Notes: generated by a model not told the origin, from the letters alone. Counted from the stretch's first letter, positions 506-39,278 are shown. The stretch is DNA of 64,000 nucleotides from Escherichia coli (GCF_002854065.1 NZ_CP024147.1); one strand, 5' to 3'. Numbers and translations are program-made.

Positions 506-2653
506 TTACGCCAGTGCCGCTTCGCGCAGGCGAGTTTTCAACTTGTTGTACTCGTCAATCACGTACTGCTCGGCGGCGCGCTGATCGGCGATCGGCTCGA
601 CGCGCACGGCGCAGTATTTGTATTCCGGCGTTTTCGTAATCGGGCTTAAGTTTTCGGTAACCAGCTCGTTACAGGCACCAATCCACCACTGGTAGGTCAT
701 ATAAATCGCCCCTTTGTTCGGACGATCGCTGACCTGCGCACGGGTGATAATTTTGCCTTTACGCGAGTGCACCCAAACCAATGCCTCATCTTCAATACCC
801 AGACGTTTGGCGTCTTCGGTATTGATTTGTGCGTAGCCAGGTTCATCCGCCAGCGCCGCCAGTGCCGCACAGTTACCGGTCATCGAACGGCAAGAGTAGT
901 GACCAACTTCACGCACCGTTGACAGTACCATCGGGTACTCGTCGGTGAGTTTGTCGATTGGCGCTACCCAGTCGCAGGTGAAGAACTGCGCCAGACCGTT
1001 CGGGGTATCAAACTTCTCTTTAAACAGATAAGAAGTCCCCTGATCGGCATCTGAAGTATCGCGGCAAGGCCACTGAATGAAGCCCAGTTCGCCCATTTTC
1101 TCGTAAGTCGCACCGTAGAAATCCGGGCACAGATGACGCAACTCATCCCAGATCTCCTGGGTGTTGTTGTAGTGCATCGGATAACCCATACGGGTGGCGA
1201 TTTCACTGATGATTTGCCAGTCCGTTTTCAGATCCCATTTCGGTTCAACTGCTTTGAAGAAACGCTGGAAGCCACGGTCAGCCGCAGTAAACACGCCTTC
1301 ATGCTCGCCCCACGACGTTGACGGTAAAATAACATCCGCCGCCGACGCGGTTTTGGTCATAAAGATGTCCTGAACGATGACCAGTTCCAGATCTTCAAAG
1401 GCTTTACGTACTGCCGACAGCTCCGCGTCAGTTTGTAGCGGATCTTCGCCCATAATGTACGCGGCACGCACTTCGCCATGCGCTGCGCGGTGCGGCAGCT
1501 CGCTGATGCGATAACCGGTATGAGCAGGCAGGCTTTCCACGCCCCAGGCTTTGGCGAATTTCTCGCGGTTAGCCGGATCTTTCACATACTGGTATCCCGG
1601 ATACGTATCCGGCAGCGCGCCCATATCGCAGGCACCCTGAACGTTGTTCTGACCACGAACCGGGTTAACACCCGCATGTGGCTTACCGAGGTTACCGGTC
1701 AGCATCGCGAGGCTGGTCAGAGAACGCACGGTTTCCACGCCCTGGTAGAACTGGGTTACACCCATGCCCCACAGGATGGCGGCGCTTTTCGCCTGGGCAT
1801 ACATCCGTGCCGCCTGACGAATCTCACTGGCGCTGACGCCGGTGATATCTTCAACCGACTCCGGCGTGTAGCCTTCAACGATTTTACGATACTCTTCAAA
1901 GCCTTCTGTACGTGAAGCGACGAACGCTTTGTCGTACAGATTTTCTTCAATAATGACATGGCCCATCGCATTCAACAGCGCGATGTTCGAGCCGTTTTTC
2001 AGTGCAATGTGCATGTCAGCAATGCGCGCGGTTTCAATTTTGCGCGGATCGCAGACGATAATTTTCGCCCCGTTACGTTTAGCGTTAATTACGTGATTCG
2101 CTACGATTGGGTGGGAATCCGCCGGGTTGTACCCGAAAACGAACACTAAATCGGTATTATCAATTTCGTTAATAGCATTGCTCATTGCGCCATTACCGAC
2201 CGATTGGTGCAGACCTGCAACCGATGGGCCGTGTCAGACACGAGCGCAGCAGTCAACGTTATTGGTACCAATAACGGCGCGCGCAAATTTTTGCATTACA
2301 TAGTTGGTTTCGTTACCCGTACCACGCGAGGAGCCGGTCGTCTGGATGGCATCCGGACCGTACTTCTCTTTGATGGCGCTCAGGCGCTCGGCAACGTAAT
2401 TCAGTGCCTCATCCCAGGAAACAGGTTCGAGTTTGCCGCCACGCTGGCGACGGATCATGGGGGTTTTCAGGCGCGGGGTCAGGATCTGGGTATCGTTAAT
2501 GAAATCCCAGCCATAATAACCCTTCAGACACAGGGTACCCTGGTTGGTTTTCCCCTGCGCTGCCTCCGCCCGGACGATTTTGCCGTTATCGACGACCAGG
2601 TTGATTTTGCAACCTGATGCGCAATAGGGGCAAACCGTGACGACTTTTTTCAT
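506..2653 (-). CDS. fdhF: Formate dehydrogenase H, selenocysteine-containing (715 aa with in-frame UGA at 2234-2236)
   Basis: Two track ORFs (2234..2653 and 506..2185) are in the same frame, separated only by a TGA; N-terminal CPYCASGC motif and molybdopterin oxidoreductase-like sequence; combined length 139+1+16+559 = 715 aa. Confidence 0.93.
2189..2236 (-). other. UGA selenocysteine codon plus downstream SECIS stem-loop
   Basis: mRNA sense reads UGA CAC GGC CCA UCG GUU GCA GGU CUG CAC CAA UCG GUC GGU, matching the fdhF SECIS hairpin as I recall it (GGUUGCAGGUCUGCACC apical stem-loop). Confidence 0.85.
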
Positions 2654-2704
2654 CGGTCTCGCTCCAGTTAATCAAATCACGCATACGCGCTCTCGACTAC
2701 AGTA

Positions 2705-2720
2705 TGCATCTTTTATGCCA
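2705..2720 (-). promoter_or_regulatory. Sigma-54 (-24/-12) promoter of fdhF
   Basis: Minus strand reads TGGCAT-AAAAG-ATGCA with GG-N10-GC spacing, about 50 nt upstream of the fdhF ATG; a GGAG ribosome-binding site lies 8 nt before the ATG. Confidence 0.7.
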
Positions 2721-2784: not shown

Positions 2785-2850
2785 AGGCTGTCGTCAGTTT
2801 TGACGTGACGAAACGAAATACCGCGTGACAGCCATCACGCGGCAGACATT
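2785..2850 (-). promoter_or_regulatory. Candidate FhlA upstream activating sequence for fdhF
   Basis: Imperfect inverted repeats (tgtcgtcag...tgacgtgacga, cgcgtgacagccatcacgcg) about 90-140 nt upstream of the sigma-54 element; exact site not resolved. Confidence 0.3.
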
Positions 2851-4314
2851 TTATTTTTTCTCGACGACGGGACCTGCCTGATACCCGCCGCCCAGCGATT
2901 TCATCAACTGAATGCTTTGGATCACCCGGCGGCTGTCCAGCATCAGTAATGACATCTCTTCGGCAAGTACTGGCAACCGGGCTTCAGTGGCCTGTAAGCG
3001 GCTGGTTAAGCCGCGCTGATAGGCGGCCTCGGCAGCGCGCTGGGTGAAGCGCGTTGCTTCCACGCGTTCAGCCTGCATTTCTCGCTCGTCGTTGAGCGTT
3101 TGCAGACGCGTGCCGTTGACGGCAACGTCACGCACCGCGTTCAGTACTGACTGGTTGTAACGTTCAATCATGTTGCTGGCGGCGCGCGTACCTTCGAGAT
3201 TGGCATTCAACCGTCCACCGTCAAACAGCGGCAATTTCAGACCCGGGATGAAGTTGAACTGGCGACTGGTTTTTTTGAATAAGGTATCCAGATGGATGGA
3301 GTCCAGACCGAAAAACGCTTTGATATCAAAGCTTGGGTAGAACAGCGCCCGCGCGGAATCCACCTGATCTAATGACGCCTGAACATACCAGCGCATGGCT
3401 TGCAGATCCGGGCGTCTGGCGAGCAACTCATAAGAGAGTGTCGCCGGAATGCCGGTCTGGACTCGTGGTAATGCCACCGGTTTGATCTCCGGCATATCGC
3501 TGGCTCCCGCGCCAATCAATGCGCGCAGAGATTCTCGCGTTTCGGTGATTTGCCCTTTAACGGCAGCAATTTGTTTATCGACCGCCAGAATCTGTGCCCG
3601 CGCGCCGTGGAAAGGCACTTGCGCTTCCAGACCGTGCGCCACTTTACGTTGGTGCGCTTTCACCGCGTAATCAATCACATCGCGAGTTTGTTCTAACAGA
3701 TCGAGCATCTGATAGCTGGCCTGCATACTGTAATAAAGCTGCGCTACGCCCGTGGTCAGCGATAGCTCTACTGCTGCGGTTTCTGCCAGCGCGGCATTAT
3801 GCGCGCCAATGGCGGCGGCAACCGCTGAGCGATGCACACCCCACAAATCAAGATCCAGTCCGGCAAACAAACCTACTGTGGCTTCCGTATAGTACGGCCC
3901 GTCCATACCCAGTGCTGGCGCATCCATCGCATAAGGGCTTAAAAAGCCGTTCGCCGAGACGCGTTGGCGGTTGAGCATCCCTAACGCTGCGACCTGTAAT
4001 TGTGAACCGGCATCTAACAAATCGGCCTGGGACTGCGCTTTTTCTTCCCGCAGTTTCGCTTCGGCGAGGGTGTGTGAACCACTTAGCGTCCGTTGGATCA
4101 GCGCATCCAGCTGTGGGTCATTGAGTTGTTTCCACCACTGCGCCTGCGGCCAGCCGGAGCTGGCAAGATGAATATCATCGGCCAGTTTGATTTGTTCCGG
4201 TTTGAGCTGTTGATGAGGCGCAGAATCCTTGCGTACCAGGGCACAGCCGGAAATCAGCGTCGTGCTGCCGAGAATGCTGCACAACAGCAGACGTGAAAGT
4301 TGACGATTGATCAT
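2851..4314 (-). CDS. mdtP: Outer-membrane factor lipoprotein of multidrug efflux system
   Basis: 487-aa ORF with lipoprotein signal (LISGCAL) and OMF/TolC-family length; stop overlaps mdtO start. Confidence 0.88.
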   Translation of the reverse strand: MINRQLSRLLLCSILGSTTLISGCALVRKDSAPHQQLKPEQIKLADDIHLASSGWPQAQWWKQLNDPQLDALIQRTLSGSHTLAEAKLREEKAQSQADLLDAGSQLQVAALGMLNRQRVSANGFLSPYAMDAPALGMDGPYYTEATVGLFAGLDLDLWGVHRSAVAAAIGAHNAALAETAAVELSLTTGVAQLYYSMQASYQMLDLLEQTRDVIDYAVKAHQRKVAHGLEAQVPFHGARAQILAVDKQIAAVKGQITETRESLRALIGAGASDMPEIKPVALPRVQTGIPATLSYELLARRPDLQAMRWYVQASLDQVDSARALFYPSFDIKAFFGLDSIHLDTLFKKTSRQFNFIPGLKLPLFDGGRLNANLEGTRAASNMIERYNQSVLNAVRDVAVNGTRLQTLNDEREMQAERVEATRFTQRAAEAAYQRGLTSRLQATEARLPVLAEEMSLLMLDSRRVIQSIQLMKSLGGGYQAGPVVEKK

Positions 4315-6362
4315 TGCGTGGCTCCTTGTGCCTGTTCCGTGGCGGGCGTTAATGCCGGGGCTGTCCAGTCTGGCAAGCGGGCGAAAAGCTGGCAGACGTG
4401 TTGCTCCTGTTTTAATAAGGTGGGCAGGATGGCCTGCGAGGCGGGTGTCTCTTCAAGCGTTATTTGAGGAGAACGGCTGAGTGCGGTTGCCAGACCGGCA
4501 GCGTATTTTTCCAGGGCGTCGGCAAACTGACCTGCTCTGTCCGGCTGTAGTGCGTTATCCAGCGCCTGCGCCGAGTTCCAGGTGGCATCCCAGGCGTGAA
4601 GAAGATCGCGGCCCTGACGAATAACCGTTTGCGAACGTTCAATCAGTAAGGCGCGTTCTTCGCTGTCCAGTTGACGCTCCAGCGCCACGCGTTGGCACAT
4701 CTCTTCACAGGCATTAAACGCCGCATGCAGACCTATACGAATTTGCAGATAAGTGCGCAGAGCCGTGACTTCCTGCTGGCGTGGGATCCGCATTACTTTA
4801 CTTAGCATACCCAGCGCACCGGCCAGTTTTTGCGGCAGCGTGCGCGCTTCACTTTCAGGCCAGACAAAGGTGCAAATCACCGCAGACACCACGGTACCAA
4901 TGATAATACCCAGGGCGCGATCGCGAATTTCCACCAGGTCGTACACCGGACCAAAAACGTTTTCGAGCGTGGCGAGCGCGAAGGTGACCACCATCTGTGT
5001 GCCGATATAAGAAGAGCGTTCAGAGCTGGTGGTAATCCATGCGCCCAACAGGAAAATCGGTGCCAGCACAAACAGCAATTCGACAATATTGTCCAGCCAG
5101 GGCATGACCAGTAGCGTGAATAACAGCGCCAGAATCACGCCGCAAAAGGCCCCGCCAAAACGCAGCACCATCTTCTGGTACGACGAACCGACATTTGGGT
5201 TAGCGACGATCACGCAGGTCAGCATACAGGTATGAATGCCTTCCCAGTCCACGCCGCTGTAGAAGGTGTAACAGATCAAACAGGCGAGCAGCGTTTTTAC
5301 CGCGTAGCGCATATAGTCTGGATTGGTAAAAGCATCGGCGACCATTGATGGCGGTTTGGCGGCGGGCGTTGGCGGCGTATTCGGGTCCATCTGACCAAGC
5401 TGTAACAGCGTCTGGCAGATATTCTCCAGGTTACATTCCCGTGCCGCCATCGCTTCACTTTCACTGATCTGCCAGTCGCTTTGCCAGCACTGACCTTCGG
5501 TAATGGCATGCTGCAGCTTGTTGATTTCTGAAGCTAATTTTTGTCGGAATTCAATAATTGCCTGAGAATCAGCAAAAGAGGTGGGATCGTAGCGATTCAG
5601 TGTCGAGTAAATGTAGGTTACCGTTGCCACGCAGCTTTGCCACCATGCACTCTGGGTTCGCCAGTTGGCATCGTCCGCGAGGCAAAAGACATTGAGTTTT
5701 TGCAGCGCCAGCGCCTCTCTTTCAATCCGCGTTTCGGGTAGCGGTGCGAGGCTGTCCGTCAGGTGGCTAATGGCATCATCAAGCCGATCATTAAGCACCT
5801 GATGCATTTGCGAAATGGCACGACTGGGAAACCACAGCACGCCGATTAACGTCATCAATAACGTCGGGTAGAGGCCGACAACGATACACCACAGGGTTAA
5901 GCGCACGACCACTTCCGGATAGTCGAGCATGGCGGGGAAGGTTTGCCCGTAAATAGCGACAATGGCGACGGCGAAAAAGACCAGCCCCAACCGATGGGTG
6001 CGCATCAAAAACATGCAGCCCATCAGGATCGGTCCGGCGATGATCAGCCGGATCAGAGGCTCGCCGTATGACCATTTGTAGATCAAAAACAGGCTGCCGA
6101 TCTCCAGCACCGTGGCAACCACAAACAAGATCGCCACAAATTTGGTGTAAAACGCGTTCGACTGAATACCGTAAAACAGCACTGCCAGCGATAACGCCAC
6201 GAAAGGGATCTCAAAGGTCATCGAGATCAGAATCACCAGCAGGCAGCCTACCCAGAGTTGCACGGTCTGCGGCACGCGACCTGGTCGCCGCTCGCTTAAC
6301 TCTTCATGAAAGAACGCCAGCAGCCTGACCACCGGTAATGGCAGGGAGTTGAGCGCGCTCAT
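4311..6362 (-). CDS. mdtO: Efflux system inner-membrane component (aromatic acid exporter-like)
   Basis: 683-aa ORF with multiple hydrophobic segments; overlaps both neighbours (4311-4314 and 6362), indicating translational coupling. Confidence 0.88.
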   Translation of the reverse strand: MSALNSLPLPVVRLLAFFHEELSERRPGRVPQTVQLWVGCLLVILISMTFEIPFVALSLAVLFYGIQSNAFYTKFVAILFVVATVLEIGSLFLIYKWSYGEPLIRLIIAGPILMGCMFLMRTHRLGLVFFAVAIVAIYGQTFPAMLDYPEVVVRLTLWCIVVGLYPTLLMTLIGVLWFPSRAISQMHQVLNDRLDDAISHLTDSLAPLPETRIEREALALQKLNVFCLADDANWRTQSAWWQSCVATVTYIYSTLNRYDPTSFADSQAIIEFRQKLASEINKLQHAITEGQCWQSDWQISESEAMAARECNLENICQTLLQLGQMDPNTPPTPAAKPPSMVADAFTNPDYMRYAVKTLLACLICYTFYSGVDWEGIHTCMLTCVIVANPNVGSSYQKMVLRFGGAFCGVILALLFTLLVMPWLDNIVELLFVLAPIFLLGAWITTSSERSSYIGTQMVVTFALATLENVFGPVYDLVEIRDRALGIIIGTVVSAVICTFVWPESEARTLPQKLAGALGMLSKVMRIPRQQEVTALRTYLQIRIGLHAAFNACEEMCQRVALERQLDSEERALLIERSQTVIRQGRDLLHAWDATWNSAQALDNALQPDRAGQFADALEKYAAGLATALSRSPQITLEETPASQAILPTLLKQEQHVCQLFARLPDWTAPALTPATEQAQGATQ

Positions 6363-10171: not shown

Positions 10172-10879
10172 ATGAAACCCGTCGTGCTGGTGGTGGATGA
10201 TGACACGGCTATCTGCGCACTGTTGCAGGACGTGTTAAGTGAACATGTCTTTACGGTTTCAGTCTGCCATACCGGACAGGAGGCCATATTGCGTATTGAG
10301 GGCGATCCTGACATTGCGCTGGTGGTGCTGGATATGATGCTACCCGATACCAACGGCCTGAGGGTATTGCAGCAAATCCAGAAACTGCGTCCGACATTGC
10401 CGGTGGTGATGTTGACCGGCATGGGCAGTGAGTCTGATGTGGTGGTCGGGCTGGAAATGGGCGCGGATGATTACATCTGCAAACCGTTCACCCCGCGGGT
10501 GGTGGTCGCACGACTGAAAGCGGTGTTGCGACGGGTTGGTGCGCTGGCGGTTAATGACGAGAAAAGCGCCGGGCTGTCATTCAATGGCTGGTATCTCGAT
10601 ACCATGCGCTGCCAGTTGCACAATCCGCTTCAGCAACATGTCGAGTTAACTCAGGGCGAATATGGCTTGTTACTGGCTCTGGCGCAAAACGCGCGTCGGG
10701 TATTGAGCCGCGAGCAGTTGCTGGCGTTCACCCACAGCGACAGCGTGGAGGTGTTTGATCGCACCATCGACGTATTAATCATGCGCTTACGACGCAAAAT
10801 CGAACTCAACCCGCATCAGCCGATGTTGATTAAAACTCTGCGCGGTCTGGGGTATGTCTTCGCTGCCGACGTGCATTAA
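10172..10879 (+). CDS. OmpR/PhoB-family response regulator (receiver plus winged-helix)
   Basis: MKPVVLVVDDD...ALVVLDMMLPDTNG receiver motifs, C-terminal LRGLGYVF wing; GGAG 7 nt upstream of ATG at 10172 (track ORF begins at 10154). Confidence 0.85.
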   Translation: MKPVVLVVDDDTAICALLQDVLSEHVFTVSVCHTGQEAILRIEGDPDIALVVLDMMLPDTNGLRVLQQIQKLRPTLPVVMLTGMGSESDVVVGLEMGADDYICKPFTPRVVVARLKAVLRRVGALAVNDEKSAGLSFNGWYLDTMRCQLHNPLQQHVELTQGEYGLLLALAQNARRVLSREQLLAFTHSDSVEVFDRTIDVLIMRLRRKIELNPHQPMLIKTLRGLGYVFAADVH

Positions 10880-20060: not shown

Positions 20061-20128
20061 GATTACTCCGCTACTCCGGTCATTCACACTCAACTAACGT
20101 TAAGCCAGTCCATCGCAGAGACTGGCTT

Positions 20129-29432: not shown

Positions 29433-29455
29433 GTTTGGCTCCGGTCTGTAGGCCG

Positions 29456-29545
29456 GATAAGGTGCTTGCACCGCATCCGGCATCAACGCCTGCACATTGT
29501 CGGATGCGACGCCGGGGCGTCTTATCCGACCTACGATTTACTGCA
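29456..29545. repeat. REP/BIME elements between phnE and phnD
   Basis: gtaggccggataaggtgcttgcaccgcatccggca and gtcggatgcgacgccggggcgtcttatccgacctacg. Confidence 0.85.
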
Positions 29546-32006: not shown

Positions 32007-32390
<384 letters not shown>

Positions 32391-38007: not shown

Positions 38008-38060
38008 GCTGAAACAGATGGCCTGATGTGACGCTGTCTTATCAGACCAACAATTGAACT

Positions 38061-38077
38061 CTTAAGGTTCACTTAAT
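38061..38077 (+). promoter_or_regulatory. PmrA (BasR) box upstream of pmrR
   Basis: CTTAAG-gttca-CTTAAT, two hexamers separated by 5 bp, about 45 nt upstream of the pmrR ATG. Confidence 0.6.
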
Positions 38078-38121
38078 CTCTGACGCGCATACTCTCCTCC
38101 AGGTTAACGGAGGAGAGTGCA

Positions 38122-38211
38122 ATGAAAAACCGTGTTTATGAAAGTTTAACTACCGTGTTCAGCGTGCTGGTGGTCAGCAGCTTTCTTTATATCTGGTTTG
38201 CCACGTACTGA
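38122..38211 (+). CDS. pmrR: 29-aa membrane peptide (PmrR-like)
   Basis: ATG with GGAGGAG RBS; encodes MKNRVYESLTTVFSVLVVSSFLYIWFATY; below the ORF-track length cut-off; 3' end overlaps the convergent basS stop. Confidence 0.6.
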   Translation: MKNRVYESLTTVFSVLVVSSFLYIWFATY

Positions 38212-39278
38212 TCTTTCTTCAGCCGTATCCAGGCGCGCGTGCCAGAAGTCTCTTGCTGGTTTTGCAGGAAAAACTGCCCGTGATGCAACTGTGTAATGCG
38301 GCTGACAATACTTAACCCCAGACCAATCCCGCCATAACGGCTGTCCATTCGTACAAACGCTTTACTCAACTCCCCGCATTTACTCTCATCAATACCCGGT
38401 CCTTCATCTTCAACGGCCATGACCGCTCCGTCATCTTCTTGCAGCTTAATCATAATGTTGCTGCCTTGCGGGCTGTAACGATGGGCGTTTTCTACCAGAT
38501 TTCGCAATAACATCCGCAGCAGGGTTGCATCACCCTGAACGGTGATGTCGGCGGTGCTCTCTGGCAATAGCAGGGTTTGCTGTCGCTGGTCGAGCATGGT
38601 ACTGAGTTCGTCATACGAGGGGAGAATGACATCTTCCAGCAGTTTTACATGTTGATAATTACCGGAAGAAAATGACTGTCCGGCACGCGCCAGTTGCAGC
38701 AGCTGGGAGACGCTCTCCATCATCTGATCAAGCCGTGCCACTAACGGTGCTACATCAATGTGATGCGTTTTCGCCAGCAGTTCCAGATGCAAACGTACCC
38801 CCGCCAGTGGCGTTCGCAGTTCGTGCGCGACGTCAGCGGTAAACAACCTTTCGTTATCCAGCGTGCTGGTCAGGCGACTGACCAGATCGTTTAACGCCGA
38901 AACCACCGCTTCGATTTCGAGGGTGGCGCTGTGAATGGCAATGGGCGTTAAGTTGTCGGCGGTGCGCGCTTCCAGCTCTTTTTGCAGCTCCGCCAGCGGG
39001 CGGGTGATGCGGCGTACCGCCTGATAGCAGATAAATAGCGTCAGGCTGACCATAAAGACGCCGGGGACAATCAGGCTGGCGACCGCCTCGCGGATCTCAC
39101 GCATGATGTGGCGATCGTTGTTGCGATTGTCGCGTAGCGCCTGCTCAAACAGCTGAATCTGCTCGGTACTTTCATGCCATAGCCAGAAGACGCTGATCAG
39201 CTCAAACACCAACAAAATGGCCCCGATGGTCAATATCAGCCGTTGGCGCAGCGATATTGGTCGGCGCAGAAAACGCAT
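38187..39278 (-). CDS. basS: Sensor histidine kinase of the BasS/BasR (PmrB/PmrA) system
   Basis: 363 aa from the internal Met; H-box VAHELRTPL, ATP-lid EDEGPGI...GGIGLGLSIV; start at 39287 is also possible. Confidence 0.88.
   Translation of the reverse strand: MRFLRRPISLRQRLILTIGAILLVFELISVFWLWHESTEQIQLFEQALRDNRNNDRHIMREIREAVASLIVPGVFMVSLTLFICYQAVRRITRPLAELQKELEARTADNLTPIAIHSATLEIEAVVSALNDLVSRLTSTLDNERLFTADVAHELRTPLAGVRLHLELLAKTHHIDVAPLVARLDQMMESVSQLLQLARAGQSFSSGNYQHVKLLEDVILPSYDELSTMLDQRQQTLLLPESTADITVQGDATLLRMLLRNLVENAHRYSPQGSNIMIKLQEDDGAVMAVEDEGPGIDESKCGELSKAFVRMDSRYGGIGLGLSIVSRITQLHHGQFFLQNQQETSGTRAWIRLKKDQYVANQI

Follow-up and report, generated by a model that had tools for sequence, protein, structure and literature searches.

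The window analysed here, a stretch of 64,000 nucleotides of Escherichia coli DNA, carries on its minus strand fdhF, the gene of formate dehydrogenase H, which is the catalytic subunit of formate hydrogenlyase. A listing of open reading frames breaks this gene into two minus-strand ORFs lying in a common frame, one at 2237-2653 (139 codons; given in the list as 2234..2653, with the stop counted) and one at 506-2185 (559 codons). Translated in a single frame, positions 506-2653 (minus strand) yield 716 codons ending in a terminal TAA, and the sole internal stop is codon 140, a TGA at 2234-2236. An earlier note on this DNA had claimed that the two ORFs form one frame with a single TGA between them, which the translation confirms. 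The length of the encoded protein is accounted for as 139 + 1 + 16 + 559 = 715 aa, the ATG with which the 559-aa ORF starts being the internal Met157 of the 715-aa frame. The interval 2189-2236 comprises the TGA and the 45 nt lying 3' of it, and this 48-mer is unique in the window. The gene and its flanking signals are arranged as follows:

506..2653, minus strand: fdhF CDS, formate dehydrogenase H, 715 codons plus TAA, recognised by PDB identity, TIGR01591 and the RefSeq CDS
2234..2236, minus strand: UGA codon 140, read as selenocysteine, with C as the next base (UGAC), from its conservation and its alignment with X140
2186..2233, minus strand: 16 sense codons HGPSVAGLHQSVGNGA between the UGA and the ATG of the 559-aa ORF
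2662..2665, minus strand: Shine-Dalgarno-like GGAG, 8 nt upstream of the ATG, read from the sequence
2705..2720, minus strand: sigma-54-type -24/-12 promoter-like element TGGCATAAAAGATGCA, 52 nt upstream of the start codon
464..492, minus strand: strong intrinsic terminator after fdhF (471-492 in a narrower delimitation), a 9-bp GC-rich stem ACAGCCTCCTTTCGGAGGCTGT followed by TTTTTTT

The fdhF gene of E. coli is known to depend on sigma-54 for its transcription, with FhlA and formate as activators of the promoter. The TGGCATAAAAGATGCA motif has its sole match in the 64-kb window at the promoter-like element listed above; the chance expectation is 0.6, so that the match is weak when taken alone, and it was retained because at least 43 of 78 related loci have a sigma-54-type motif at the corresponding place upstream of the gene. 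A search of the fdhF region for sigma-70-like promoters gave no hit. Upstream of the fdhF start, ACTGGAGC is conserved in related loci. Two further Rfam hits at the locus were discarded: one to ZMP/ZTP at 790-876 (20.2 bits against 39, E = 4.3), which lies inside the CDS and was attributed to chance, and one to Atu_Ti3 at 467-502 (18.8 bits against 50), which reflects the terminator hairpin only.

The upstream neighbour, mdtP, occupies 2851-4314 (minus strand) and encodes 487 aa, the corresponding CDS in O157:H7 TR01 (2851-4317) being 3 nt longer; the difference is a one-codon length polymorphism, and mdtO is shifted along with it. An 11-bp hairpin with a T-rich tract behind it (2819-2844, minus strand) lies between the mdtP stop, which it directly follows, and the fdhF promoter; it is probably the mdtP terminator. 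Close to this hairpin, direct repeats TGACGAAA were observed at 2774-2781 and 2806-2813, together with an 8-nt inverted repeat (2765-2772 and 2796-2803). The mdtP-fdhF region containing these repeats is where, going by the literature, the FhlA upstream activating sequence would be expected to lie.

The 715-aa product, with X at residue 140, is 100% identical over residues 1-715 to the chain named 'formate dehydrogenase H' in PDB entries 1AA6, 1FDI, 1FDO, 2IV2 and 7Z0T, which comprise crystal and cryo-EM structures and in which residue 140 is non-standard (written as X in the files). Alignment to reference FdhF had been proposed as a check on the gene, and it returned this full-length match with codon 140 opposite X140. 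Against TIGR01591, the NCBIfam equivalog for formate dehydrogenase subunit alpha, the protein scored 1089 bits (cutoff 666.25), the match running from residue 6 to 685 in the protein and from position 1 to 672 in the profile. The N-terminal four-Cys motif (C8, C11, C15 and C42) is present in the translation as in the solved protein, and these residues are presumably the ligands of the [4Fe-4S] cluster. In the cryo-EM structure of formate hydrogenlyase, the active site of FdhF is a Mo(MGD)2 centre with a metal-coordinating selenocysteine (PMC9474812). Codon 140, being aligned with X140, stands at this molybdenum-ligand position, which is held by selenocysteine (or cysteine).

In the closest RefSeq record, fdhF is annotated as one CDS of 2148 nt, with coordinates equivalent to 506-2653 of the window and with neither a pseudogene nor a join flag. 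Together with the end-to-end match to solved FdhH, this single CDS bears out the further claim of the earlier note that the locus holds one gene for a 715-aa selenoprotein. An arrangement of two genes, one for an iron-sulfur protein of 139 aa and the other for a molybdopterin subunit of 559 aa translated from the ATG at 2185, could be entertained in view of an ATG lying 16 codons past the TGA; this ATG, however, is the internal Met157 of the solved protein and requires no Shine-Dalgarno sequence, the 16 intervening codons are in frame, conserved as HGPSVAGLHQSVGNGA in all loci and contained within the solved structure, and a homologue with cysteine at codon 140 (locus L066, described below) is one continuous ORF. 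We regard the division into two genes as vanishingly improbable, and the single selenoprotein gene is the reading retained in what follows.

The break made by a plain ORF finder at the in-frame TGA may also be taken as the mark of a pseudogene, in which a nonsense mutation has inactivated fdhF and the 559-aa ORF is a decaying remnant. A pseudogene of this kind is recognised by the loss of constraint downstream of the stop and by a stop which is not shared with related loci, and conservation was examined both within E. coli and across the order. With a 2.5-kb query, fdhF was found in 5419 of 5426 complete E. coli genomes, always named fdhF and flanked by yjcO and mdtP, one record naming the product 'formate dehydrogenase H subunit alpha, selenocysteine-containing'; the 63-nt segment with the UGA and the SECIS recurs without any difference in 5407 of 5420 records of the species. 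The cross-species set consisted of 80 Enterobacterales loci, obtained from a scan of one genome per species and belonging to genera such as Escherichia, Salmonella, Citrobacter, Klebsiella, Enterobacter, Kosakonia, Serratia, Buttiauxella, Cedecea, Arsenophonus and others, with protein identities from 80% to 100%. Codon 140 is TGA in 79 of these 80 loci, as in essentially all E. coli genomes, and TGT (Cys) in the remaining one; the context is TGAC in 77 of 78 loci, and stops are confined to codons 140 and 716 in 76 of the 78 full-length loci, so that in these the frame downstream of the TGA is open to its end.

Substitutions are dominated by third positions on both sides of the UGA: per-site differences from the window at the three codon positions amount to 0.061/0.044/0.391 downstream and 0.051/0.030/0.343 upstream. 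The agreement of the two profiles indicates that the sequence past the UGA is translated and that purifying selection acts on its protein just as it does before the UGA, which rules out a pseudogene or a true stop; moreover, the product matches, residue for residue, an active enzyme that has been crystallised, and RefSeq sets no pseudogene flag. Decay by nonsense mutation is in practice refuted, and we consider it extremely improbable. The earlier note had likewise held that fdhF is not a pseudogene, and had named the absence of a stable hairpin, or Cys homologues with a true stop at this position, as observations that would speak against recoding. Neither was encountered, the TGA being kept in 79 of 80 loci with the frame continuing beyond it; the single Cys homologue is a sense replacement and not a sign of a true stop.

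The sole TGT locus among the 80 (L066:2417-2419) was found in the metagenome-assembled genome CALYPF010000061.1 of an uncultured Enterobacteriaceae, which also holds a second fdhF copy, with TGA (L077). L066 retains an intact 17-nt apical SECIS stem-loop, which suggests that the switch from selenocysteine to cysteine may have been recent. Two fdhF paralogues each were also observed in Klebsiella michiganensis (L015/L069), Raoultella ornithinolytica (L040/L045) and an Enterobacteriaceae isolate (L072/L073); the members of these pairs are ~85-95% identical to the E. coli protein, and both keep the TGA and the SECIS.

The RNA signal attached to the UGA was delimited as two nested features:

2187..2241, minus strand: SECIS element in its full Rfam extent of 55 nt, from the RF01988 match, running from 5 nt upstream of the UGA to 47 nt downstream
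2206..2222, minus strand: apical 17-nt stem-loop GGUUGCAGGUCUGCACC, positions 15-31 counted from the U of the UGA, the putative SelB-binding part

The RF01988 (SECIS_2) covariance model was matched over its full length (1-55) with 87.1 bits (E = 1.4e-18), the gathering score being 70 bits, and the minimum free energy (MFE) folds of both the 48-nt and the 55-nt segment reproduce the Rfam consensus structure, in agreement with the SECIS hairpin that had been proposed 3' of the TGA. In the MFE fold, the apical stem is formed by the pairs G15-C31, G16-C30 and U17-A29, followed, past the bulged U18 (bulged U17/U18), by G19-C28, C20-G27 and A21-U26, and is closed by the loop G22-G23-U24-C25. The SECIS of E. 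coli fdhF has been described as a 40-nt element whose 17-nt upper stem-loop takes up positions 15-31, 11 nt from the UGA, with U17, G23 and U24 as the determinants for SelB (PMC8659212). The position and the key residues of the apical stem-loop in the window agree with this description. The description comes from a review, which cites Liu et al. 1998, the primary paper on the minimal SECIS.

Folding of the 45 nt after the UGA, another check put forward in the earlier note, likewise favoured its reading: a hairpin with the SelB features is formed, though its stability does not exceed chance (z about -1). For the 48-nt segment the free energy is -14.9 kcal/mol (z = -0.67), and 49 of 200 dinucleotide shuffles fold as well; for the 55-nt segment it is -19.7 kcal/mol (z = -1.23), and 25 of 200 shuffles do so. 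The element is G+C-rich, which is the context of this unexceptional free energy, and with such z values the presence of a 'stable hairpin' discriminates poorly, so that free energy was discarded as evidence in either direction. Thermodynamic stability is not a defining property of SECIS_2 in the literature, the criterion having come from the earlier note; what supports the SECIS is, instead of its free energy, the sequence-specific match together with conservation. As to the match, the window sequence is almost identical to the SECIS_2 consensus, differing solely at two lower-case (variable) positions; this very element and its close relatives presumably served to build the family, so that the match draws on what was already known and amounts to recognition rather than independent proof.

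Conservation at synonymous sites was measured in 79 distinct CDSs whose DNA identity to the window ranges from 74 to 100% (median 84.5%). Over the whole of fdhF, conserved residues have an average synonymous codon entropy of 1.00 bit, and the twelve lowest-entropy 16-codon windows, out of 571, all begin at codons 133-145, with values of 0.30-0.43 bits. Codons 144-149 (UCG GUU GCA GGU CUG CAC) are invariant, and the apical stem-loop GGUUGCAGGUCUGCACC is unchanged in 80 of 80 loci, despite CDS identities of only 74-100% at the DNA level. Within the 55-nt element, third codon positions that are paired, or that supply the bulged U or the loop U24, have a mean entropy of 0.11 bits, against 1.16 bits for unpaired third positions in or just outside it (Pro143, Gln150, Gly153, Asn154 and Ala156; Mann-Whitney p = 0.0005 for paired/SelB-contact versus unpaired positions). 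Paired four-fold sites show only C/U alternation, opposite G, whereas all four bases occur at unpaired four-fold sites, and all changes at paired positions are wobble-preserving transitions. The HGPSVAGLHQSVGNGA codons have a double role, specifying residues of the protein and at the same time coding for the SECIS. The comparison is a clean illustration of how an RNA signal inside a coding sequence leaves its trace as suppressed synonymous change.

No compensatory covariation was detected among the 27 distinct SECIS sequences, a shuffle control reaching the observed values in 77 of 500 runs; covariation is uninformative here because the element is almost invariant. Nine of the 15 inner pairs never vary, and both partners of a pair have changed only in the Cys variant, and there at one pair. 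Indirect support for maintenance of the structure is strong, coming from the wobble-preserving transitions and from the entropy contrast between paired and unpaired sites. In the Rfam model, two pairs are not maintained, pair 8-47 being broken in 7 of the 27 distinct sequences and pair 17-39 in 15 of 27; neither column pair is predicted by RNAalifold, and among Enterobacterales these columns behave as unpaired, freely varying synonymous sites.

Synonymous constraint begins 5 nt upstream of the UGA and ends exactly at column 55: Val139 is encoded only by GUC or GUU and Gly155 only by GGC, while the third positions of the flanking Asn154 and Ala156 vary freely. Such limits would be consistent with a functional RNA made up of the full 55-nt structure rather than of the usual 40-nt element, in which the outer helix (columns 1-5 with 51-55) encloses the UGA and might tune when the hairpin unwinds relative to the access of release factor 2 (RF2). 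We offer this as a tentative suggestion, somewhat against the odds, drawn from the pattern of sequence constraint; if true, it would be a refinement and not a discovery, since the outer helix is already drawn in the Rfam model.

SelB binding and selenium-dependent read-through have been established experimentally for the same E. coli sequence (PMC8659212, PMC4513850), and recoding at the UGA-SECIS reaches 30-40% in vivo, in competition with RF2 (PMC4513850). From this literature on the same sequence we infer how the window gene would be expressed, with SelB binding, competition with RF2 and ligation of molybdenum as its main steps. As the ribosome nears the UGA, the mRNA directly downstream would fold into the SECIS hairpin, whose 17-nt apical stem-loop (bulged U, loop GGUC) would be bound by SelB together with GTP and Sec-tRNASec. 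Tethered in this way, the SelB complex would deliver selenocysteine to the UGA in competition with RF2, some ribosomes reading through to give the 715-aa enzyme and others presumably terminating after residue 139. In the enzyme, selenocysteine 140 would act as the protein ligand of molybdenum in the Mo-bis(MGD) formate-oxidising site.

The sel machinery is absent from the window, where no tRNA gene was found. The gene of tRNA-Sec (selC) is annotated in 5424 of 5426 complete E. coli genomes, a figure which concerns selC across the species only. This near-universal presence bears on a further explanation, according to which the UGA is read not by Sec-tRNASec but by a near-cognate Trp or Cys tRNA or similar, the hairpin merely slowing termination. 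The unremarkable energy of the hairpin would fit such a role, as would the UGAC tetranucleotide, which is regarded as a weak termination context. A generic roadblock, however, would not need the SelB-defining loop and bulge to be synonymously invariant in 80 loci, and the non-standard residue 140 of the solved structures is described as selenocysteine (PMC9474812). Read-through by another tRNA is in our view very unlikely. We conclude, with a probability of about 0.98, that fdhF in the window is an intact gene in which UGA codon 140 is recoded as selenocysteine.

Comparison with described systems identifies the window gene as E. coli fdhF itself and not as a mere analogue. The 715-aa protein is identical to that of E. 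coli K-12 fdhF (Sec140), and the two genes share the position of the UGA, the 17-nt apical stem-loop 11 nt after it, the neighbours yjcO and mdtP and the sigma-54-type promoter motif; nothing of substance distinguishes the window from K-12 fdhF or from SECIS_2. Other genera mostly carry CGC and AAC at two synonymous sites where the window has CGU and AAU, the version present in 5407 of 5420 E. coli records. At the CGU site this replaces a C-G pair of the outer helix with U-G, whereas the other site is unpaired.

In the SECIS of the fdnG/fdoG type (RF01989, SECIS_3), which belongs to the other selenoprotein formate dehydrogenases of E. coli, a hairpin whose apical loop is related likewise comes after a UGA; this family gives a weak cross-match in the window (35.8 bits, below the gathering score of 63); its lower stem differs. 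The host protein is also different, being a periplasmic-facing enzyme exported by the Tat system. Cysteine-containing homologues of FdhF, such as L066, have the same fold and active-site position, the window having UGA instead; these Cys forms need no SECIS and are reportedly far less active. Bacterial selenocysteine insertion has its founding example in the recoding of fdhF, which is well known and has correct entries in RefSeq, Rfam and PDB. The case matters solely for annotation hygiene, as a naive ORF caller would split or discard a working gene, that of the formate-oxidising subunit of the hydrogen-producing formate hydrogenlyase.

Several further features were recorded elsewhere in the window. 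Between the gene of a hybrid histidine kinase and yjdP lies a segment of ~750 bp (19340-20087) that is absent from the otherwise collinear O157:H7 TR01. It is matched over its full length in 5 of 5426 complete E. coli genomes and partially in 35, and is 100% identical to the bovine strains XJ34 and XJ6-3 and to the wastewater strain CUWW06. The segment contains an ORF of 261 aa (19275..20060, plus strand), for which the records carrying it give the annotation (GNAT) N-acetyltransferase. The adjoining region from yjcS to yjdP (~10175-19319) corresponds, in the closest annotated record, to a response regulator, a carbohydrate kinase, a ketose-bisphosphate aldolase, a D-lyxose/D-mannose isomerase, a sugar ABC transporter and a hybrid sensor kinase. 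In K-12 this position is taken by the allose (als)/rpiB cluster, so that the region looks like a strain-variable sugar-utilisation island.

Four tandem copies of an naRNA4 (CssrE)/REP-type element, scoring 107-109 bits each, were found at 32007-32383 (minus strand) with an exact period of 100 nt, and a fifth, weaker naRNA4 copy lies inside the phnD region (29451-29531, plus strand); the copy number differs from that of TR01, whose alignment overlaps itself there. Finally, the segment at 38053-38218 (plus strand) strongly matches the enterobacterial sRNA STnc630 in Rfam with 181.8 bits (gathering score 55). Going by the coordinates of the closest record, the match is situated near pmrB/basR, on the strand opposite to these genes, a placement that is approximate because the window is offset from that record by several hundred bases at this point.
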